A stretch of 64,000 nucleotides of DNA from a virus (taxonomy: Duplodnaviria; Caudoviricetes). Of the stretch, positions 1,478 to 50,663 are shown in pieces (within the stretch, counting starts at the first letter, position 1; each line of letters starts with the position of its first letter). The DNA is taken from the IMG/VR virus record IMGVR_UViG_3300020016_000006, positions 3,433 to 67,432 of that record; one strand, 5' to 3'. The notes beneath the pieces were generated by a model. That model was given only the letters and a program-made list of their open reading frames with translations. It was not told the origin of the DNA and made no database searches. A program made the translations under genes and the position numbers.

Positions 1478-1894
1478 ATGATACGACATGTTCATAATCC
1501 CGGCGACATTGTACCTGTGCCGATAACGGCTGATGGGTTGCGGTATTTGTATAATGCATGCAATGAGATAGCGAGGATCAATCGCATCCAAGCACTCGCG
1601 CTTACGAATGAAAAGGCACGATCAGAGAAACACCGAGAGGCGATATCAAAGATGCGAGTCATGCACATGCATATAGCAGATCAGTATGAAGCTATGGCGA
1701 AGGAGATTACCCAAGCCAAGGATCAGACAACATCGAGTGAGATGAGTCTAAGTATGGCTGGAGAAATGAAGCTAACGGTGATTGGATCGGATATTAATCA
1801 TACACGCTCACAGCAATGGGACGATGATCTTGCCGAGCTTGAACGGCGAACGGCCGCGCTCCGCGCCGAGCGACAGGCGGTCTCGCGCCCGTAG
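1478..1894 (+). CDS. hypothetical coiled-coil protein
   Basis: 138-aa helical ORF in a tightly packed operon. Confidence 0.7.
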   Translation: MIRHVHNPGDIVPVPITADGLRYLYNACNEIARINRIQALALTNEKARSEKHREAISKMRVMHMHIADQYEAMAKEITQAKDQTTSSEMSLSMAGEMKLTVIGSDINHTRSQQWDDDLAELERRTAALRAERQAVSRP

Positions 1895-1907
1895 CAGGGC
1901 CGTGCAC

Positions 1908-1957
1908 CCTGCTTCTCCCCTCGGGCGGACCTCGGGGGCCGGGCGGGGAGAAGCAGG
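1908..1957 (+). terminator. GC-rich hairpin (13-bp stem CCTGCTTCTCCCC/GGGGAGAAGCAGG), possible terminator or processing site
   Basis: Perfect inverted repeat right after a stop codon; no clear U-tract. Confidence 0.45.
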
Positions 1958-2061
1958 CTCTAACAAGGTGCTGCATTCGTTTTTAGCGATGCCCCTTTCT
2001 GATTTCCCGAAACGGGGTATCTTTCGGAGTGAACCTTATGATCGAGAAGGAGGATACGTGT

Positions 2062-2283
2062 ATGATTACAGGGCGGAGACGGCCGGCAACGAGGACCGGC
2101 GAATCATGCCTTGCCGTATGCGAACATTGTGATGCTGAGCCACAGAAGAACGGCGGGGTTGGAACGGATGCGATCAATGTACGACGCTGGGCTTCCCGGC
2201 ATGCGCACGCCGCGAGGCATCGGGTGATGCTGAAAACGACGCAGACAACCTACTACAATGGGCACATAAGGAAGCAAGCATGA
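2062..2283 (+). CDS. hypothetical protein with CxxC
   Basis: AGGAGG RBS near 2048; CEHC motif. Confidence 0.6.
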   Translation: MITGRRRPATRTGESCLAVCEHCDAEPQKNGGVGTDAINVRRWASRHAHAARHRVMLKTTQTTYYNGHIRKQA

Positions 2284-2510
2284 CTATGACACCTGAAGAG
2301 GCCAAGGCAATCCATCGCATGGAGCAGATGACTGCTGGACTTCGTCAAGGAGCAGAAGCTGTGTTTAAGTATTATCAAGCACTTATCCATGCAGGGTTCA
2401 AGCCGAAGGAGGCATTGCCCCTAGCTGGAACATTTCAAGCTACACTTTGGACGGAAGCGATGGCGAAAGGAGGAATGAATGATGACAATCAGGGCGGAGC
2501 TAATCCATAA
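2280..2510 (+). CDS. hypothetical protein
   Basis: ATGA overlap with upstream gene. Confidence 0.7.
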   Translation: MTMTPEEAKAIHRMEQMTAGLRQGAEAVFKYYQALIHAGFKPKEALPLAGTFQATLWTEAMAKGGMNDDNQGGANP

Positions 2511-3417: not shown

Positions 3418-3674
3418 TTGATGTACGCGTGGAAACACTCGATGTTGGTAATCCTGATCCTGTACAGTGTAAGGCATGCGATATTAATGCGCAGGCCATG
3501 GCTGTTCTAAGCATCTCAACAACACGTGAACGTGTTAATGGTAAGCGTCGAACGACAACAAAAGATACAGTGAATCATTTCCTTTGTGTTGATTGCGTAT
3601 TACGAATGGCTGCGCTCTTTGAAGTTGCGGTGGATTCATTCATGGAGTCTCATGGAAGAAGGAAGCGTGCGTGA
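3414..3674 (+). CDS. hypothetical zinc-binding protein
   Basis: Two CxxC motifs (CKAC, CVDC). Confidence 0.7.
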   Translation: MIDVRVETLDVGNPDPVQCKACDINAQAMAVLSISTTRERVNGKRRTTTKDTVNHFLCVDCVLRMAALFEVAVDSFMESHGRRKRA

Positions 3675-3937
3675 TGGTAAATCCAAAATTCAAATACTTG
3701 TGTCGGCATATTCGGGAAGGCAATGTGCATTATTCAGTTCTTGAGCCAGGAAGAGACTGTCGTGGTGATGCGCCAAAGCTTGAGCCTGGAACGTATTTAG
3801 TACAATGGCCAATTGGTGTGATTGAATTTGCTGATATCAGTGAAGATGAACGTGGTGAAATGTGGTTGAAAACGAAACATCATGGTGGGGAAATCAATTC
3901 ATGCCTTTTTGATGCGAAGGTGAGGATTCTGGCATGA
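3671..3937 (+). CDS. hypothetical protein
   Basis: GTGA overlap with upstream gene. Confidence 0.7.
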   Translation: MMVNPKFKYLCRHIREGNVHYSVLEPGRDCRGDAPKLEPGTYLVQWPIGVIEFADISEDERGEMWLKTKHHGGEINSCLFDAKVRILA

Positions 3938-4116
3938 AGCTCACTTTCACTGCGAAATGTATGTTCATTTGCGGCTTATTGATATGGTTCGCCATCATCA
4001 TGGCATTTAGGAGAGAATACTGGTGGGCACTACTTGACCTTATTGGCGCTGGCATATGGTTCTGGCTAGCAGCGAAGTATGGAGGTGAGTCCATTGACGT
4101 GGATCCAGTTGGATAG
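3934..4116 (+). CDS. small membrane protein (2 TM)
   Basis: Two hydrophobic segments. Confidence 0.65.
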   Translation: MKLTFTAKCMFICGLLIWFAIIMAFRREYWWALLDLIGAGIWFWLAAKYGGESIDVDPVG

Positions 4117-4279
4117 AATCCCAAATGAAGTGGATTTAAGCAGTGAAGAGGGAATGAAATGGTGGTTGCTGTGCAGACCCAAACTGAATGGTCAAAGAAT
4201 GGTGCTTGATCTTACACCCTTGAAGGATCACCTCAGAGAACTTGGAGATGAACATGGCCCGCATGAACTTCATTCCTGA
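4079..4279 (+). CDS. hypothetical protein
   Basis: In-operon ORF; start uncertain. Confidence 0.5.
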   Translation: MEVSPLTWIQLDRIPNEVDLSSEEGMKWWLLCRPKLNGQRMVLDLTPLKDHLRELGDEHGPHELHS

Positions 4280-4454
4280 GTTGCGTGAGAAGTTGAAGAC
4301 ACAAATCGAAAAGCAGGGAATCAATAAGCGAATTGTTCAGACGGCACTTGATCAATGGGATGCTGGCCAAAAACCAAGCAGCCCCTATGTGCGTGCATGC
4401 TTCCAGGTCTTTGAGAAGATTCAGGCTGAGATTGATGCTGGAAGGGAACCATGA
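4242..4454 (+). CDS. hypothetical protein
   Basis: GGAG RBS; coupled to next gene. Confidence 0.65.
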   Translation: MEMNMARMNFIPELREKLKTQIEKQGINKRIVQTALDQWDAGQKPSSPYVRACFQVFEKIQAEIDAGREP

Positions 4455-4738
4455 ATCCTGCCCAGATTGAGCGATTGGCCATTTGCGCTGAAGAGGCTGG
4501 TGAAGTAATTCAGGCTGTGGGCAAGTGTCTTCGTCATGGAATGGATTCTGAGAATCCAAATATTATTGGTGGTGGGTGTAATCATTATCACTTGGCGCGT
4601 GAACTTGGCCAGCTAATCAGAATCGCAGACTGGCTCGTAGGGCATGGCGATATTTATGATGAGTATCTCAAGAAGGGATATGATGAAAAGATGCGCAAAA
4701 TGAGAGAATACATTCATTGCGAGGAGAATCTGAAGTGA
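4451..4738 (+). CDS. MazG-like NTP pyrophosphohydrolase
   Basis: ERLAICAEEAGEVIQAVGKCLRHG...LARELGQL, EExxE all-alpha NTP-PPase motif. Confidence 0.75.
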   Translation: MNPAQIERLAICAEEAGEVIQAVGKCLRHGMDSENPNIIGGGCNHYHLARELGQLIRIADWLVGHGDIYDEYLKKGYDEKMRKMREYIHCEENLK

Positions 4739-4971
4739 ATCTTGATGAAATTACATTATGTAGTCGGCTCGCTGCACTGCTGGCATGGGCGCCTGGCATG
4801 AGTCCCGGTGCGCTGATGGACTTATCAATGGGTGACCATCATATCAGCGCTGTTCATCTGGCCAAAGAAACACCCTTGACATATGAACAAGCACGAATGT
4901 ATCTGGCCGGTTTACAACAGGATATTGAAGTGGTCCGTGCGAACAACTACAAAGTGGAGGGATTGTTATAA
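4735..4971 (+). CDS. hypothetical protein
   Basis: GTGA overlap. Confidence 0.65.
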   Translation: MNLDEITLCSRLAALLAWAPGMSPGALMDLSMGDHHISAVHLAKETPLTYEQARMYLAGLQQDIEVVRANNYKVEGLL

Positions 4972-5453
4972 TGACTAACTATGGAATGTGGAATTGGGAT
5001 CTTGCGACTCGATGGTGGAGGGGCATCTGTCTTGGCTGTGGTGAAGCGAGCCAGGAGCCAAAGCACTTTATTGGCGTGCGAATTGATCCCTCACGTGGGT
5101 GGAGTGCGTCGCACCCTGGATGTATTGTTGCTGATAAATATGAGATTCGACCAATGGTGGATCTATTGGAATCTGGCCATACAGGTGGCGTGGAATGGGG
5201 AACTGGGATCATGCCTCGGCTTCCATGGGCTCAGAAGAAGGAGTTGTGCGGTGATACGCCATTATATCGTGCGGATATGTTTGTAACGCATGAGCAATTG
5301 CGAGAGCAGCGGGAGATGATATTGAACTATGTTGAGAAGGAAATAATTCAGAAGTTGAAGAATGATAATCTTTTGATGAAAATCGTGGATGCTCGTGTGA
5401 GCCGTGCTCTGCGTGAAGGAGCGAATAGTGCTATGAAACAGGCTATGCGATAA
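4971..5453 (+). CDS. hypothetical protein
   Basis: 160-aa ORF, TAATG coupling. Confidence 0.7.
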   Translation: MTNYGMWNWDLATRWWRGICLGCGEASQEPKHFIGVRIDPSRGWSASHPGCIVADKYEIRPMVDLLESGHTGGVEWGTGIMPRLPWAQKKELCGDTPLYRADMFVTHEQLREQREMILNYVEKEIIQKLKNDNLLMKIVDARVSRALREGANSAMKQAMR

Positions 5454-6320: not shown

Positions 6321-6586
6321 AGTGACGATTTAGTAGACTCCTCGCGAGTGCCTAGTAGGGGTTTTATGCGGAAGGGCAATAGGCGGGGGAGGCCGGGATA
6401 TGGGGTGGGTGGCCGCAACCAGTCACACATGAAGCACAGCGCAAATCAACATTCACGTATAGCGTATTGGCTGTTACAAACAACATTGGTGGGCTCTGAA
6501 ACTGGTGAATCAATGAAATTACCATGATTCAAAGTTGGTGTGTTGGGTGTATGACTACATGACCCCATGCATTGGAGAACATTGCA

Positions 6587-7321
6587 ATGGCATTTGATCT
6601 TGAAACTGCGACTGATGAACAGAAGCTGCTTGTTCTCCGTGGGTATTGTGCACGTCCAACACGCAATCCAGCAGCCAAAGGGCCATACTGTACACAGAAT
6701 GCTGGACATAAGACAGATCACGCTGGTGAAGGAGCATGTTGGCTGCATGGTGGGAACAATCGCATTAAACATGGACGATTCAGTTCAGTTAAGCATACCA
6801 GGCTGGCTGATCTCATTTCAGAGATGGATGAAACAGAAGATCCACTCAACACGTTGCCTGAAGTGGCAGCCACCAGAGCACTCCTGGTTGATCACATTAA
6901 CAGATATGATGAATTTACAGCTGCGCTGATCGCATGGCATGAATCATACATGGCTGGTGTTCCGACACCCAAACTGTTCGCTTCACTTGAATCCATAATG
7001 GAGATGTTGGAGACCAATTGTACTGAAGCTGAACTGAAACGCAACAAAGATTATCAGACATGCCTCAAGGCTGTGATGTCCTATAAGAGCTCAAATCCAA
7101 AGCCAATTCAAATTCTTGATATCGCAGACTCAATGAGATTGCTTAGTGAAGTCACCAGGATGGTGGAGCGCATTGGAAAGTCCATGTCCATTAACGCAGT
7201 GGGCAGGCGTGATTTCCAGCGCATCATGCTGGAGATTGGAAACATCATTGACCAATGCGTCAGCAGCGATCGTGAAAAGATCAAGATCAGAGACAAAATT
7301 GCGAATCTCAGATTGGCCTGA
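6587..7321 (+). CDS. terS: terminase small subunit (HGG-motif family)
   Basis: C-x-GHKTDHAGEGACWLHGG-NRIKHGRFS motif typical of HGG-type small terminases; helical C-terminus; GGAG RBS before ATG 6587. Confidence 0.7.
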   Translation: MAFDLETATDEQKLLVLRGYCARPTRNPAAKGPYCTQNAGHKTDHAGEGACWLHGGNNRIKHGRFSSVKHTRLADLISEMDETEDPLNTLPEVAATRALLVDHINRYDEFTAALIAWHESYMAGVPTPKLFASLESIMEMLETNCTEAELKRNKDYQTCLKAVMSYKSSNPKPIQILDIADSMRLLSEVTRMVERIGKSMSINAVGRRDFQRIMLEIGNIIDQCVSSDREKIKIRDKIANLRLA

Positions 7322-7331
7322 TGCAGTGAGG

Positions 7332-7351
7332 TGCAATGGTGCACTGATGCA
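7332..7351. repeat. 20-bp TGCA-rich element TGCAATGGTGCACTGATGCA, copy 1
   Basis: Identical copy at 58325-58344. Confidence 0.8.
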
Positions 7352-7426
7352 CTGATCATCCAATCCTAATGGTTCAATTATGCTGAATGGTCAACTGCTA
7401 TCCAGCATAATTGAGGCAATGGGGTG

Positions 7427-7476
7427 AAAAGAAAAACAAAAGGCCATGGGCACCAGATCATCGGTGCCCATGGCCT
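7427..7476 (-). terminator. intrinsic terminator of the minus-strand wHTH gene
   Basis: 14-bp stem AGGCCATGGGCACC/GGTGCCCATGGCCT with A-tract on the + side, just after the TAA. Confidence 0.85.
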
Positions 7477-7483
7477 CAAGTGT

Positions 7484-7918
7484 TTACTTCACCTCAGCAG
7501 GAGTGTCCTTCGCCTGATCCCGCATCGCGATCACCGCGGTCCTGACCGCCTTGGCCTTGTCGCTGGCCTTGGCATCGTTCTCGGCAATCACGAACCGATA
7601 CTCACTGCCGATACGAATGGCGTCCAGGATGCCCGCCTCTCCCGCGCTGATCCCGAAGTACCTCACCGTCACATCACGGAGGCCGGTGGCAGCCACAAGC
7701 TCGCTGACCGTTGATCCTGCGCCCTGACGAATGGCGTCCCAGACCTTGCCTTCACGGAGAGGATTGATCCTGCCCTCTGCGAGCGCCTTTGGGTCTGGGC
7801 CGGTCTTGCCGTCCTTGCGTGCTGGGGTGGCCTTGCTGTAGGGAGCGACGGTGACCGTGGGAGTGGGGGTGGTCTCGGTGACCACAGGCTGGGTGCTGTT
7901 CTTCTTGTTGCGCTTCAT
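7484..7918 (-). CDS. winged-HTH-like protein, TG/CA-rich copy (paralog of 8535-9011)
   Basis: ATG at 7918 after AGAACGGGAG RBS; VWDAIRQGAGSTVSELVAATGLRDVTVRYF..LDAIRIGSEYRFV wHTH-like pattern. Confidence 0.85.
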   Translation of the reverse strand: MKRNKKNSTQPVVTETTPTPTVTVAPYSKATPARKDGKTGPDPKALAEGRINPLREGKVWDAIRQGAGSTVSELVAATGLRDVTVRYFGISAGEAGILDAIRIGSEYRFVIAENDAKASDKAKAVRTAVIAMRDQAKDTPAEVK

Positions 7919-7994
7919 GGTGTTCTCCCGTTCTTGTTGAGTTATCAAAGAGCACTTGGCTCGGGCCAGGGGATCGTCCCCCGACCTAGGTACT

Positions 7995-8040
7995 AATCTA
8001 CGTTGCCTCAGAAAAAAGCGAAACCCGAATAGTACCCGAA
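7995..8040 (-). promoter_or_regulatory. promoter TTTCGC-N17-TAGATT with two TCGGGT boxes upstream
   Basis: Inverted repeat of 8334-8363; 17-bp spacer; points into the 7918 gene. Confidence 0.7.
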
Positions 8041-8058
8041 GTGTTTTCGCCTTCACTC

Positions 8059-8255
8059 AAAACTCGAGCATGGAACAAAATTGGTGATTGGTGGTGAATG
8101 CCACTGTGCGATGCCAAACACCACTGTGCGACCAATGCCTAATGGTTGAATGGTCCATGGTTGGTGGGTGGGTGGTGGGTGTGTGGGTGGCCCTGGTGCC
8201 TGTGGACGTTGGGTTTTGAAGTTGTAGGATCAATCTTGTCGCATGCTCGAGTTTT
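8059..8255. repeat. 14-bp inverted repeats (AAAACTCGAGCATG) enclosing a TG-rich core with CCACTGTGCGA x2 and a G-tract
   Basis: 8059-8072 vs 8242-8255; direct repeats at 8101 and 8121. Confidence 0.8.
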
Positions 8256-8323
8256 GCGCGACAATTTCCACTCGACAATTTTGATCGCGACCGAGAACAA
8301 CTCGCGTTAGTCTATCGGACAAC

Positions 8324-8379
8324 TCGGGTTTAATTCGGGTACTATTCGGGTTTCGTTTTTTCCGAAGGATTCGTACTAT
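8324..8379 (+). promoter_or_regulatory. promoter TTTCGT-N17-TACTAT with three TCGGGT boxes at 11-bp period
   Basis: -35 8351-8356, -10 8374-8379; boxes at 8324, 8335, 8346. Confidence 0.75.
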
Positions 8380-8534
8380 AGTCTCGTCGCTCCGCGAAAT
8401 TCGGAAGCCTCCCCCGCGAGGGAAGTAGCCGAGCGACCCGATAGCCGAGCGGGCGCGGTCCCGAGCTAGGCGAACGAAAAACCGAACCCTCCGAGACGGG
8501 CCGCTCCCGTCTCGGTTAACTCCGAGGAGGCTAT

Positions 8535-9011
8535 ACGAAAAACCGAAAGAACCGCGCGACCCGCGCCCCCGAGACGCCCGAGGCTCCCGAGGCCGTAGCT
8601 CCCGAGACGCCCGAGGTTCCGACCGTAACCGTCGCTCCGTACTCGAAAGCGACCCCCGCCCGTAAGGACGGAAAAACCGGACCCGACCCGAAGGCGCTCC
8701 GCGAGGGTCGGATTAACCCCCTCCGCGAGGGTAAGGTTTTCGCGGCGATCCGGGCGGGCGAAGGCTCGACCGTCGCGGAGTTAGTCGCCGCTACCGGACT
8801 CCGAGACGTAACCGTTCGCTATTTCGGAATTTCCGGCGGCGAGGCGGGGATTCTCGACGCTATCCGAATCGGTAGCGAGTACCGGTTCGTCGTTTCCGAA
8901 ACGGACGCGCTAGCGAGCGCGAAGGGTAAGGCCGTAAGGACGGCCGTAATCGCCCTCCGAGACGCGGCGACCGCGACCCCCGCTCCGAGTACCCCCGAGG
9001 CGGCGAAGTAG
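8535..9011 (+). CDS. winged-HTH-like protein, TG/CA-free copy, ACG start (not in ORF track)
   Basis: GAGGAGG-CTAT-ACG; 158 codons to TAG; 100/114 aa identical to the 7484-7918 product; no M, W, C, Q or H. Confidence 0.9.
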   Translation, partial: TKNRKNRATRAPETPEAPEAVAPETPEVPTVTVAPYSKATPARKDGKTGPDPKALREGRINPLREGKVFAAIRAGEGSTVAELVAATGLRDVTVRYFGISGGEAGILDAIRIGSEYRFVVSETDALASAKGKAVRTAVIALRDAATATPAPSTPEAAK

Positions 9012-9018
9012 CTCCTAC

Positions 9019-9045
9019 GGGCCGCTAGGGCGATCCTAGCGGCCC
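9019..9045 (+). other. intercistronic hairpin GGGCCGCTAGG-GCGAT-CCTAGCGGCCC
   Basis: Perfect 11-bp stem between the two island ORFs. Confidence 0.7.
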
Positions 9046-9073
9046 TCCCGCTCCCCTTAGCTTAGGAGGCTAT

Positions 9074-9229
9074 ACGCGCTACCCCTATCTCGGACTTCCG
9101 GCCGCTCCGAGCGTCCGCGAGTCTCTAGAGCGGGCGGCGGAGATTATCGCCCGCCGGATCGTTTCGGAAATTCGATTCGTCCCCGTCGCCCGCGACCTCC
9201 CGCCCTACTCGGGCGAGGACGGTTCGTAA
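9074..9229 (+). CDS. 51-aa hypothetical protein, ACG start (not in ORF track)
   Basis: Same GGAGGCTATACG context as 8535; RYPYLGLPAAPSVRESLERAAEIIARRIVSEIRFVPVARDLPPYSGEDGS then TAA. Confidence 0.75.
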   Translation, partial: TRYPYLGLPAAPSVRESLERAAEIIARRIVSEIRFVPVARDLPPYSGEDGS

Positions 9230-9239
9230 AAACCGAAGG

Positions 9240-9268
9240 GGGGTAGCCGAAACGGCTACCCCTTTTTT
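9240..9268 (+). terminator. intrinsic terminator GGGGTAGCC-GAAA-CGGCTACCCC-T6
   Basis: GC stem with U-tract closing the island. Confidence 0.9.
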
Positions 9269-9354
9269 ACGGGCGGGGAGGGTGCCCCCTCCCACATGCA
9301 GGATGAAATCTGAAACATTTCAGCCATGAACTTTTCATTGATCACCTATGAGTC

Positions 9355-9383
9355 TTTTGTTTTCCCCGAGTGTTCTATAGCTT
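9355..9383 (+). promoter_or_regulatory. candidate promoter TTTTGT-N17-TAGCTT
   Basis: 17-bp spacer, -10 identical to other phage promoters; upstream of ATG 9393. Confidence 0.5.
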
Positions 9384-9392
9384 TATTTTATT

Positions 9393-9551
9393 ATGATCCG
9401 ATACAAAATTTGGTTTGAGCCGAGTGATGACAGTATAATGATGGGCACCACCCCAAGCCAACGAGCCACGGTGCTTCAAGAGTTTATCGCATATACATGG
9501 GAAGAAGCCTTACGCACCTTTGCTCGTTGGAGATCCATACGATTAATCTGA
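9393..9551 (+). CDS. hypothetical protein (52 aa, possibly near-leaderless)
   Basis: MIRYKIWFEPSDD...; ATG about 10 nt after the -10. Confidence 0.5.
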   Translation: MIRYKIWFEPSDDSIMMGTTPSQRATVLQEFIAYTWEEALRTFARWRSIRLI

Positions 9552-9851
9552 GCAGGTTGCGATTAGACGGGCGTGAGATTGCGGTGTGCCACCCCAACAC
9601 GGCCCATGAGATCACGAACAACCCAGAAGTGTTCGATGAACTTATGAGGACACTGCAATGCCACGAGGATGTAACTGTCCGCTTGAAGCCATCCTAGCGC
9701 GTTTGCTCCTGAGGATGACGGATAGGATGCGAGGATGGCAGATCGCTCGGCGCACTGGCCGGCGTAATGATACATTAACAATCATTGACAGGTGTGACAT
9801 TTGCAACCAGCAGTACACTTTAACCTTCACCCCCGACAGGAGACATCCAGA

Positions 9852-10013
9852 ATGAAATACCTCATCATCGCCATCCTACTGCTGCTCCCCGCTACGGGTT
9901 GCTCCGCTCCAACTGAGCCAGGCATCAGCAACTTTAATCCCCCACACAGTATCCAAGCCCTCAATCGGCATAAGCCACCCCCACCCCCACCCGACCCATG
10001 GGAGATAAGGTGA
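9852..10013 (+). CDS. small lipoprotein-like protein
   Basis: MKYLIIAILLLLPATGC signal with lipobox; Pro-rich tail. Confidence 0.6.
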   Translation: MKYLIIAILLLLPATGCSAPTEPGISNFNPPHSIQALNRHKPPPPPPDPWEIR

Positions 10014-10357
10014 ACCGACGCCAGGCGCTCAAACCCCTGCTCCTTCTCCCAGCTGTGGCGATTAGCTGTGAGGAACTACAACCCACCACTTCACAAGCAC
10101 TTGTGCCCTTTAAGTTGAATGCTGAGGGGGTGGGGTTTGCCCGAGACCGGAATGGAGACGTTCACCCAATCCACAATCCCCTTCTTGTACACCAAGTGGG
10201 CGATATTCGTCTTGATGGCCGGAAGCGGGAATATGTTCAAGAATTCAATACAGAAAAGGGTTGGATCCGGCAGGGGCTAGATAAGGATGATTTCTCCAAA
10301 TCGGGGCTTCATGAAGTGGTTTCCTACGGCAAAGTCACGGTGGAGTGGAGATCATGA
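10010..10357 (+). CDS. hypothetical protein with Tat/lipoprotein-like signal
   Basis: GTG start; NRRQALKPLLLLPAVAISC. Confidence 0.65.
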   Translation: MNRRQALKPLLLLPAVAISCEELQPTTSQALVPFKLNAEGVGFARDRNGDVHPIHNPLLVHQVGDIRLDGRKREYVQEFNTEKGWIRQGLDKDDFSKSGLHEVVSYGKVTVEWRS

Positions 10358-10647
10358 AAGAGAATGATGAGACGTACTACATGCTCCATACTGTCAACCG
10401 ACTGATCTTTGAGATTGATACATCAGAAGGCGACCGCATCTGCACCCTGCTCGACAAGCTCTCTGATAACATAATTTTGCCGGGAGATTCGGTTCCAGAT
10501 CCAATGTTTATCAATTTCACTGATCGCGCTGGATCAGATATTCGTGTTCGTGCCGCGCATATTGAGGCATTGTTTACCTCCAGCCCTGCCTCTCGTGCAC
10601 ATGACAAAATGGTTGAAGAGAGGGACAAAGACTGGTCTAGTCCGTGA
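10354..10647 (+). CDS. hypothetical protein
   Basis: GGAG RBS, ATGA overlap. Confidence 0.7.
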   Translation: MKENDETYYMLHTVNRLIFEIDTSEGDRICTLLDKLSDNIILPGDSVPDPMFINFTDRAGSDIRVRAAHIEALFTSSPASRAHDKMVEERDKDWSSP

Positions 10648-48336: not shown

Positions 48337-49302
48337 GTGCTGATCGTCGGTGCTGGGATGGCCGGCCTGCTGGCGGGGCATATACTCCGCCGGCACCGGC
48401 CACTCATCGTGGAAGCGCAGGAGTCCTTGCCAAATAACCATGCGGCCCTCCTGCGCTTCAAGACGCCGAAAGTCTCAGAGGCAACGGGCATCCCCTTCCT
48501 CAAGGTCTATGTCCGCAAAGCAGTTATGACAAGCAAGGGCCTTTCCGACCGGCCGAGTCTTGCGGACAATAATGAGTATTCAATCAAGGTAACTGGCGAA
48601 GCACTCGACCGATCAGTACTTGATCTGAGTCCTGGCGAGCGATATATTGCTCCTGAGGATTTCATAAGTCAGATGGAAAGTAATCTGAACATCCAGTTTG
48701 GGTACAAGTGGAATCCAACTCGGGATGAGTTTGATATTAATCAGCCCGAGGATGGCACGATCATTAGCACTGTTCCGATGCCGACACTAATGAAGATGGT
48801 TGAATGGCCGGCGATTCCTGAGTTCAAGCATAAGCGAATATGGACCGTTACGGCATATGTTGAAGATCCACCAGCCAGTTTGTACCAGACAATTTATTAT
48901 CCAGACCGGAGGCGTGACTACTATCGAGCCTCTTTGACGGGCAACCGCCTCTCATTAGAATACATTCAGTCAGTAGAGAGGGAAATAGCACAGATGGATG
49001 TGATGAAGGTTCTGGATGATTTCGGAATCTATCATCCAAAATGGAATATGAAGCCGCTTATTCATTATCATGAAGAGTATATCAAAGCACAGTTTTACGG
49101 TAAGTTGCTTCCAATTGATGAGATGGAGCGTAAGGCATTCATCATCGGGATGACGGATAAGTATGATATCTGGAGCCTCGGGCGATTCGCTACATGGCGA
49201 CAGATTCTCCTTGATGATGTAGTAGATGATGTGAAATTCATTGACCGCGTCGTTACCCAGAAGGATCAGTATCACCGCCGAATGCACCACCACAATAGCT
49301 AA
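48337..49302 (+). CDS. FAD-dependent oxidoreductase/mutase-like protein (UDP-galactopyranose mutase-like)
   Basis: IVGAGMAG dinucleotide-binding motif; C-terminal GRFATWRQ..DDVV like Glf GR..Y motif. Confidence 0.7.
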   Translation: MLIVGAGMAGLLAGHILRRHRPLIVEAQESLPNNHAALLRFKTPKVSEATGIPFLKVYVRKAVMTSKGLSDRPSLADNNEYSIKVTGEALDRSVLDLSPGERYIAPEDFISQMESNLNIQFGYKWNPTRDEFDINQPEDGTIISTVPMPTLMKMVEWPAIPEFKHKRIWTVTAYVEDPPASLYQTIYYPDRRRDYYRASLTGNRLSLEYIQSVEREIAQMDVMKVLDDFGIYHPKWNMKPLIHYHEEYIKAQFYGKLLPIDEMERKAFIIGMTDKYDIWSLGRFATWRQILLDDVVDDVKFIDRVVTQKDQYHRRMHHHNS

Positions 49303-49443
49303 CAACAGCCGGCTTCGTGCCGGGGGAGCGACCAATATGTGGCGTGAATTCCTAACCATCATGGGGATCATCTACGCCTGCTCGTTCGCGCTGGCACTCG
49401 TGTACCTATTGATCGGCGCACTGGCCGGGAAGGTTCATGTCGA

Positions 49444-49686
49444 ATGAATATCCAAGAGGCATTGGAAAAGAAACGGCAAGCCAAAAAGTGGTTTCGCAGT
49501 CTTACTCGCGAGGCATTGCTAGAGTTTCTTGCCGATACAGCATATCGTCTTAATGAGCTTGAAGGGGCCGCGATACTTGAAAATGAAAATGATGAAGAGT
49601 TTAGCAATCATATTCTCGACGCAGTGGAGAATGTAAATGCTGCGTATAAGGCAGAAACACGTTCTGAACTCCCGGCATTAACATGA
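49444..49686 (+). CDS. hypothetical protein
   Basis: In-operon ORF. Confidence 0.6.
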   Translation: MNIQEALEKKRQAKKWFRSLTREALLEFLADTAYRLNELEGAAILENENDEEFSNHILDAVENVNAAYKAETRSELPALT

Positions 49687-50663
49687 CAGTCAAGTTGCTA
49701 ACCTATACACCTGATGCGCTAGATATCATGCTGATGACGAAGCAGACTCGGCTGGATTTTAACCCCGAGATGCTGGAGGAGATTCGGCAATGGCCGATGG
49801 AGCAGAAATTGAAGGAACTGGCGTACATGCGTGGGACTATTCAGAGCAGTTGGGAATTTGTGGATTATACTTTTTTGTTGACGGGCGTATCGCGGGCCTT
49901 TACTCATCAGTTTGTTCGGACGCGACAAGGTTCCTACGCGCAGCAATCGCAGAGAACAGTAGACATGCAGGGATTTGATTATCTGGTCCCGAATGAGCTT
50001 CGGGAGAAGGATCTGGGTGAGGATGATTCTCCGCTTACCAAGACATCCGAATACGGGATTGATTTTCTTGACTTGGATGAGACGGTCAACACATCCCCGG
50101 ACATGTCCAGCGGTAGAAATTGGTATGATTGGGGAATGCTCGCCGCTGAACACGCCTATGCCAAGATGCGCGAAAAGGGAGTCAATCCTCAAGATGCGAG
50201 GGGTGTCCTTCCAACAAATATCGCTACAAATATCGTGGCGAAGTTTTCATTACGTGCCCTCTCAGATATGGCCAAGATCAGGCTTTGCACTCGCACTCAG
50301 GGTGAGTATCAAGACATCTTCCGCGAGATGCGTAAGCGAGTGATTGAAGTTCATCCTTGGGCCGAGCAGTTCATAGAAGTCCACTGCGTGGCGCTCGGGG
50401 TGTGTGCGTTCCCAAATTATATGGAGTGTCCAATTAAGGGTCCGCTCCTGAACCCTGAGACGGGACTTCGATGGGATGAGGCTCAGACCAAACGGACTCT
50501 CACAATACTTCCCAATCCTGAGAATGGTCTCAAGGACAAGATATTCCATACCATGGAGTATCCAGCTCACCCGGCTCCTCGGTGGTGGGTAAAGCAGAAG
50601 TGGGAGGAGCTACGGTATGAGGCTGTGCCGAAGCAACATAAGAACGAAGGGGAAGTACCATGA
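49683..50663 (+). CDS. thyX: ThyX-like flavin-dependent thymidylate synthase homolog with atypical RTR motif
   Basis: VSRAFTHQFVRTRQGSYAQQSQR, PQDARGVLP, R.CTRTQGEYQ. Confidence 0.85.
   Translation: MTVKLLTYTPDALDIMLMTKQTRLDFNPEMLEEIRQWPMEQKLKELAYMRGTIQSSWEFVDYTFLLTGVSRAFTHQFVRTRQGSYAQQSQRTVDMQGFDYLVPNELREKDLGEDDSPLTKTSEYGIDFLDLDETVNTSPDMSSGRNWYDWGMLAAEHAYAKMREKGVNPQDARGVLPTNIATNIVAKFSLRALSDMAKIRLCTRTQGEYQDIFREMRKRVIEVHPWAEQFIEVHCVALGVCAFPNYMECPIKGPLLNPETGLRWDEAQTKRTLTILPNPENGLKDKIFHTMEYPAHPAPRWWVKQKWEELRYEAVPKQHKNEGEVP

Follow-up and report, generated by a model that had tools for sequence, protein, structure and literature searches.

In a 64 000-nucleotide stretch of soil phage DNA (hereafter the window), two genes lie within a short cassette that contains neither TG nor CA, and both genes probably start at ACG by direct, weak initiation, as a consequence of the exclusion of TG/CA at the level of the DNA. 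The ACG start and the sequence around it recur in related cassettes that have diverged considerably. We know of almost no conserved natural ACG start codons in bacteria or phages, and the purge of TG/CA is apparently unpublished; literature searches on TG/CA avoidance in phages and on ACG starts in phages returned nothing relevant.

Extent and composition of the TG/CA-free cassette

The source of the window is a linear 67.4 kb IMG/VR virus record from soil, estimated to be 73% complete, in which no end repeats were found and a weak terS match was located at 6572-7321. The last CA before the cassette lies at 8320 and the next TG at 9283, leaving a gap of 963 bp with zero TG/CA over 961 bp (Table 1). 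Outside the cassette TG plus CA occur at a rate of ~0.147 per position, approximately one in every 7 bases, and the second-largest gap in the 64 kb measures 52 bp; by our own arithmetic the probability of a gap such as that of the cassette is ~1e-66. The first-pass annotation, made on the letters of this DNA, had stated that NTG codons are barred from the island, and this was borne out by the count of zero TG over 8321-9282. When the cassettes of five lineages were pooled (4,171 bp) the TG/CA count was again zero and no further word was missing, while the words CG, TA, AA and GA were raised in the cassette.

Table 1. Features of the window and TG/CA-poor stretches of its relatives
Feature	Position	Strand	Remarks
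Canonical twin (P0003)	7484..7918	-	144 aa; ATG start; TG/CA 14.4 per 100 nt
Tract of highest TG/CA density in the window	8054..8220	.	Between the twins, ~100 bp from the cassette
TG/CA-free cassette	8321..9282	+	Putative promoter through terminator; 64.8% G+C
22 bp element TTCGGGTACTATTCGGGTTTCG	8334..8355	+	Exact inverted copy at 8019-8040, upstream of the twin
Putative weak sigma-70-like promoter, TTTCGT-17 nt-TACTAT	8351..8379	+	Inferred from a reading of the sequence
Shine–Dalgarno site of ORF1, GGAGG	8526..8530	+	Conserved across 7 lineages
ACG, proposed start codon of ORF1	8535..8537	+	Aligns with the twin ATG; invariant in 7/7 lineages; ORF1 start context GGAGGCTATACG
ORF1 (P0001)	8535..9011	+	158 codons; predicted winged-helix DNA-binding protein; TG/CA-free coding
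G+C-rich hairpin between ORF1 and ORF2	9019..9045	+	No U-run; comparable hairpins in L004 and L006
Shine–Dalgarno site of ORF2, GGAGG	9065..9069	+	Sequence
ACG, proposed start codon of ORF2	9074..9076	+	Same 12-mer context as ORF1
ORF2 (P0002)	9074..9229	+	51 codons; small protein without family match
Strong intrinsic terminator closing the cassette	9240..9268	+	Stem of ~10-14 pairs, then T-run; z-score -2.7
TG/CA-free stretch, L004/L005 (Logan)			765 bp; ORF1 start context CGAGGCTATACG (L004)
TG/CA-free stretch, L006 (ENA)			1091 bp; ORF1 start context GGAGGCTATACG
TG/CA-free stretch, L007 (Logan)			At least 668 bp; ORF1 start context GGAGGCTTTACG
TG/CA-free stretch, L010 (JGI)			693 bp; ORF1 start context GGAGGCTATACG
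TG-free stretch, L011 (Logan)	1516-2315		800 bp; no TG, six CA, all within CGTAGCA; ORF1 start context GGGGGATATACG
TG/CA-free stretch, L012 (Logan)			At least 370 bp; ORF1 start context GGAGGATATACG

Start context of the cassette genes

The window contains two copies of the 12-mer GGAGGCTATACG and no more (8526-8537 and 9065-9076), each at the head of an open frame. The first-pass annotation had placed ACG at 8535 and 9074 in an identical context, and both its coordinates and the shared 12-mer proved exact. It had also described a strong Shine–Dalgarno site with a fixed spacer, and this arrangement extended well beyond the window: a Shine–Dalgarno site, a 4 nt A/T-rich spacer and ACG were found in 7/7 copies of ORF1 and 3/3 copies of ORF2 (10/10 ORFs, seven lineages). 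The head of ORF1 reads Shine–Dalgarno, 4 nt, ACG-AAA-AA in every lineage, and the ORF2s of the window, L004 and L006 all start GAGGCTATACG. When the 5' regions were aligned, the start block was the sole well-conserved segment and the remainder was divergent.

In-frame stop codons were located 5 codons upstream of ACG in ORF1 of the window (TAA), 9 codons upstream in ORF1 of L004 and 3 codons upstream in ORF2 of L004. As the frame of the window ORF1 is closed only 5 codons upstream, ACG is its sole plausible start, and no near-cognate codon other than ACG was found at the head of a frame with a Shine–Dalgarno site. Aligned against six ATG-started twins, each with a Shine–Dalgarno site and ATG, the ACG falls on the initiator Met, and the match of ACG-K-N-R-K-N to the paralogue's M-K-R-N-K-K-N that had been noted previously was reproduced with the twin at 7484-7918 (-). 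The codon is one base from AUG and lies 4 nt past GGAGG in a cassette without any NTG, which is the pattern of a near-cognate start; a genomic ACG at a position where homologues carry ATG is also the pattern of an edited start.

Such genes were expected to be missed by standard gene callers, and this was seen in two forms. The cassettes of L004, L005 and L006 had been left empty, and in L007 and L011 the frames had been prolonged on the 5' side to spurious starts beyond the cassette, giving mis-extended calls of 220 aa (P0007, L007) and 261 aa (P0011, L011). With genes of this type overlooked or wrongly extended by gene callers, similar cassettes would stand unannotated in phage genomes.

ORF1 and its ATG-started twin

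ORF1 and P0003 share 85% protein identity over 115 aa, and their DNA identity is 71%, or 67% across all aligned codons. When the two were compared codon by codon, sites with TG or CA in the twin were found to be recoded in ORF1, and residues that need TG/CA had been swapped conservatively (W to F, M to L and Q to A). Many synonymous differences between ORF1 and the twin are located away from TG/CA sites, as would be expected for an old duplication. The differences among the cassette ORF1 copies are mainly synonymous (dN/dS 0.18-0.39, dS 0.5-1.4), and the dN/dS of the normal twins is 0.21-0.27. This purifying selection on the cassette copies argues that the frame is translated. Concerted evolution of the twins was considered and rejected, as in core identities the two copies of L004 are as distant from each other as from all others.

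The structural model of ORF1 (pLDDT 80) has an H-H-H-E-E topology at residues 65-120, a winged helix lying behind a disordered tail that is basic and Pro/Glu/Thr-rich. The top Foldseek matches of the model were SmtB, CzrA and MarR, with probabilities of 0.97-1.0 and E-values only of 6e-3 and above, and on this model ORF1 is predicted to be a winged helix of the ArsR/SmtB/MarR type. No significant family assignment for ORF1, ORF2 or the twin was obtained from Pfam, PHROGs or NCBIfam. Protein searches recovered P0004-P0006 and P0008 as homologues of the twin. The winged-helix domain of the twins was also observed within P0009, a long, normally coded protein of 966 aa, at residues 251-367; this embedding may aid in assigning a function to the domain.

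ORF2 and the intergenic region

The similarity of the window ORF2 to the ORF2s of L004 and L006 is weak and the sequences are barely alignable. The coding status of ORF2 is less secure than that of ORF1, resting on the shared start context and this weak similarity.

Directly past the stop codon of ORF1, CUCCUA pairs with the Shine–Dalgarno site of ORF2 around a stable hairpin (window 9012-9069), and by this pairing the translation of ORF2 could be coupled to that of ORF1. Translational coupling through sequestration of the ORF2 Shine–Dalgarno site was not retained as an explanation, as the arrangement seen in the window is not preserved as such in L004 or L006. The cassette of L010 ends after ORF1, and the place of ORF2 is taken by a normally coded, TG-rich ORF (854-935) that starts with ATG and encodes ~26 hydrophobic residues.

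Elements flanking the cassette

The 22 bp element present in inverted copies upstream of the two twins was also found 5' of the L006 and L010 cassettes. The two twins probably share it as an operator or promoter region, and as a candidate operator it is perhaps bound by the winged-helix twins themselves. A scan for consensus promoters returned no sigma-70 site for the cassette, where a consensus -35 sequence is impossible because TG/CA is excluded. The tract between the twins contains 40 TG+CA per 150 bp, compared with a window mean of 22.1 (sd 4.5), and includes runs of GGTGGGTGG. TG-rich tracts also flank the cassette in L004, L006, L007 and L010, and that of L004 includes GCTGGTGG.

Relatives in independent soil assemblies

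Relatives were taken from the contigs of twin homologues recovered in protein searches, together with one JGI contig. Independent soil assemblies yielded six more lineages with a TG/CA-free cassette beside a normal gene (Table 1), so that the purge is kept in seven lineages with protein identity down to ~60%. The six CA of L011 are placed upstream of the ORF (three), inside it (two) and at its stop codon (one); CGTAGCA could be a tolerated or a functional motif, and a clue to the reader of TG/CA. The cassette is divergent to the twin in the window (7484-9282), L006, L007 and L011, and lies in tandem with it in L004 (ahead of the twin, 3604-5157) and in L012 (behind it with one gene between, 250-2101). 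With position and orientation varying by lineage, the cassette appears to behave as a movable unit. A blastn search of 7000-10500 against a phage collection gave zero matches, and a protein-pattern scan of IMG/VR with P0003 identified no relative. L008 and L009, which were picked up in IMG/VR through exact 17-mer matches, have no TG/CA-free stretch and were discarded as chance matches.

The recoding of ORF1 has a designed appearance in that even codons away from TG/CA sites have changed synonymously, and it might in principle be an artefact of mis-assembly or of miscalled bases in modified DNA, or else come from engineered DNA that was synthetically recoded. However, the window sequence shows zero differences from contigs of a second soil sample and study, which makes an assembly artefact unlikely, and diverged versions (60-93% protein identity) are present in JGI, ENA and four Logan assemblies. 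The pattern of divergence is natural, and an artificial origin is already contradicted by these independent, diverged copies and is considered extremely improbable. The identity in a second study and the diverged lineages together indicate that the feature is natural and has been maintained through divergence.

Initiation at ACG

In the mechanism that we favour, the duplex step TG:CA would be kept out of 8321-9282 by selection on the DNA. Two observations lead us to place selection at the level of the DNA: TG/CA is missing from the untranscribed promoter/operator DNA as well as from the coding and terminator parts, and the rule holds equally for the two strands. Since UG is part of AUG, GUG, UUG and CUG alike, both cassette genes would use ACG. 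This codon would be read directly, and weakly, by the initiator tRNA, with anticodon pairing at positions 1 and 3. Its weakness would be partly offset by a near-perfect Shine–Dalgarno site ((A)GGAGG) and by the fixed 4 nt A/U-rich spacer (CTAT, CTTT or ATAT), and the A-rich codons 2-3 of ORF1 (AAA AAC) should hold the initiation region open in an RNA of 65% G+C. From what is generally known of initiation regions, it is plausible that the output from ACG is raised by the strong Shine–Dalgarno site together with the A/U-rich spacer and AAA as second codon. The products of ORF1 and ORF2 would carry formyl-methionine at the N-terminus and be produced in small amounts, while the same winged-helix protein would be supplied from ordinary DNA by the ATG-started twin; a low output of ORF1 may suit a regulator whose bulk comes from that twin. 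In E. coli, ACG-started GFP is made, with N-terminal Met (some Thr), and falls into the group with 0.1-1% of the output of AUG, while AUA, AUC, AUU and CUG starts give 1-2% of AUG (10.1101/063800). We infer that the ribosome starts at ACG with low output and with no need for editing.

The proposal in the first-pass annotation that ACG is forced by dinucleotide avoidance stood in part. No NTG codon is possible in the cassette, but ATT, ATC and ATA are also free of TG/CA, and ATT and ATC do occur inside the cassette ORFs. Since these three codons are permitted and are stronger in E. coli, avoidance by itself does not account for the use of ACG in every case, which could reflect a host preference, an ACG-specific mechanism or the descent of a single initiation cassette.

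The use of ACG in 10/10 cases, although ATH is allowed and better in E. coli, and the conservation of the spacer and first codons in nucleotides beyond coding need are also what would be seen if ACG were the start position but needed a dedicated mechanism. AUG could be generated in the transcript by a site-specific C-to-U change as in plant organelles, or TATACGAAAAA could be licensed by a phage or host factor, for example through relaxed IF3 proofreading. We regard such a requirement as unlikely. No CMP/dCMP-type deaminase, tRNA or Rfam element was found in the 67 kb record, tRNA genes were likewise absent from the contigs of the relatives, and the Rfam scan gave nothing meaningful. PF00383, the sole deaminase family searched, was absent from the record (73% complete), while control genomes gave matches; this agrees with the earlier remark that no deaminase gene was seen, and leaves the suggestion that ACG is edited to AUG unsupported as it was stated. 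We are aware of essentially no description of C-to-U mRNA editing in bacteria or phages, and global editing is excluded because codons containing CG directly encode residues of the twin. The record is 73% complete, and the portion not recovered could encode an editing or other factor. A further reading, which we judge to be quite unlikely, is that the cassette is an orthogonal unit with no canonical start in six frames, turned on only via a mechanism acting at TATACGAAAAA. This could be a site-specific ACG-to-AUG C-to-U change or a relaxation of start-codon proofreading that the phage or the host induces, and the infection state would then switch the translation of the cassette genes.

It is also rather improbable that one or both frames are untranslated from ACG, in which case ORF2 may be non-coding and the conserved 11-mer may act as a signal in RNA or DNA, such as a processing or protein-binding site that happens to overlap the heads of the frames. 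The poor alignment of the ORF2s from three lineages would fit this, as would the fact that G+C-rich DNA free of TGA yields long open frames by chance. However, ORF1 is under clear purifying selection in a frame that is closed shortly upstream of ACG, and the 11-mer holds a canonical Shine–Dalgarno site at a working distance and is always in frame with the ORF. Direct, weak initiation at ACG remains the preferred reading.

Candidate readers of TG/CA and implications

The protein families PF01555, PF00145, PF02086 and PF01702 (N6/N4, C5 and Dam-type methyltransferases and TGT/DpdA) were absent from the record. The ThyX cluster was considered as the writer of a TG mark and rejected; ThyX passes the NCBI equivalog cut-off as an ordinary thymidylate synthase, TG context is absent from the thymidine-hypermodification paper, and the idea was unsupported. 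We know of no DNA mark specific for TG/CA. It is a reasonable, if speculative, idea that the phage places a mark at TG/CA elsewhere in its genome; an equally speculative one is that a host or phage nuclease or reader acts at TG/CA and only the cassette DNA must function.

Selection appears to have removed every canonical start from a working cassette and to have kept ACG through long divergence. The cassette offers a natural test bed for the reach of the Shine–Dalgarno site and its context in supporting a near-cognate start, and it sharpens the larger question of what reads TG:CA strongly enough for a phage to give up ATG. As cultured E. coli phages of Wifcevirus show a milder purge, this question is experimentally approachable.

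Comparison with known systems

The Escherichia phage ECML-117 (Wifcevirus, JX128258) contains ~1.5 kb with 14 TG+CA per 500 bp, compared with a genome mean of 72. As in the soil phages, this is a local purge of TG/CA across small genes of an early block. However, the purge in ECML-117 is incomplete and ATG starts are kept, whereas here it is absolute and the starts are ACG. ThyX (44% identity) and an adjacent phrog_4828 protein (36%), which is Rossmann/FAD-like, are common to the window (48337-50663) and JX128258 (55582-57756), and a DnaE-type polymerase is present in both phages. The soil family may be a distant relative of the Wifcevirus/Pbunavirus group, with the purge an inherited trait; given this possible kinship, the genes in common do not count as independent support for the writer of a mark.

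In plant organelles, C-to-U editing turns ACG into an AUG start codon, and the cassette genes resemble these transcripts in having a genomic ACG where homologues have ATG. The cases differ in that no PF00383 deaminase is present in the record studied here and that, to our knowledge, editing is undescribed in phages. The first-step-transfer DNA of phage T5 lacks EcoRI sites and is, like the cassette, a self-contained, early-looking stretch of phage DNA without a word that occurs normally in the rest of the genome. The excluded word is a dinucleotide here and a 6 bp site in T5, and a role of the cassette in first entry is putative.

The Mom function of phage Mu carries out post-replicative hypermodification at SAS, and phage enzymes mark words of 2-3 nt (PMC13219725). 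An activity of this sort, reading or writing such short words, could put a cost on TG/CA, although the record contains no Mom, methyltransferase or DpdA/TGT homologue. The closest parallel in translation is offered by near-cognate starts such as the AUU of E. coli infC and pcnB (both cited in 10.1101/063800), which are likewise conserved non-NUG codons, one base from AUG and behind a Shine–Dalgarno site, from which weak initiation is expected. In contrast to AUU, ACG carries its mismatch at the middle base and is used by every cassette gene, and the reason for its use appears to be a ban on TG at the level of the DNA rather than autoregulation by IF3.
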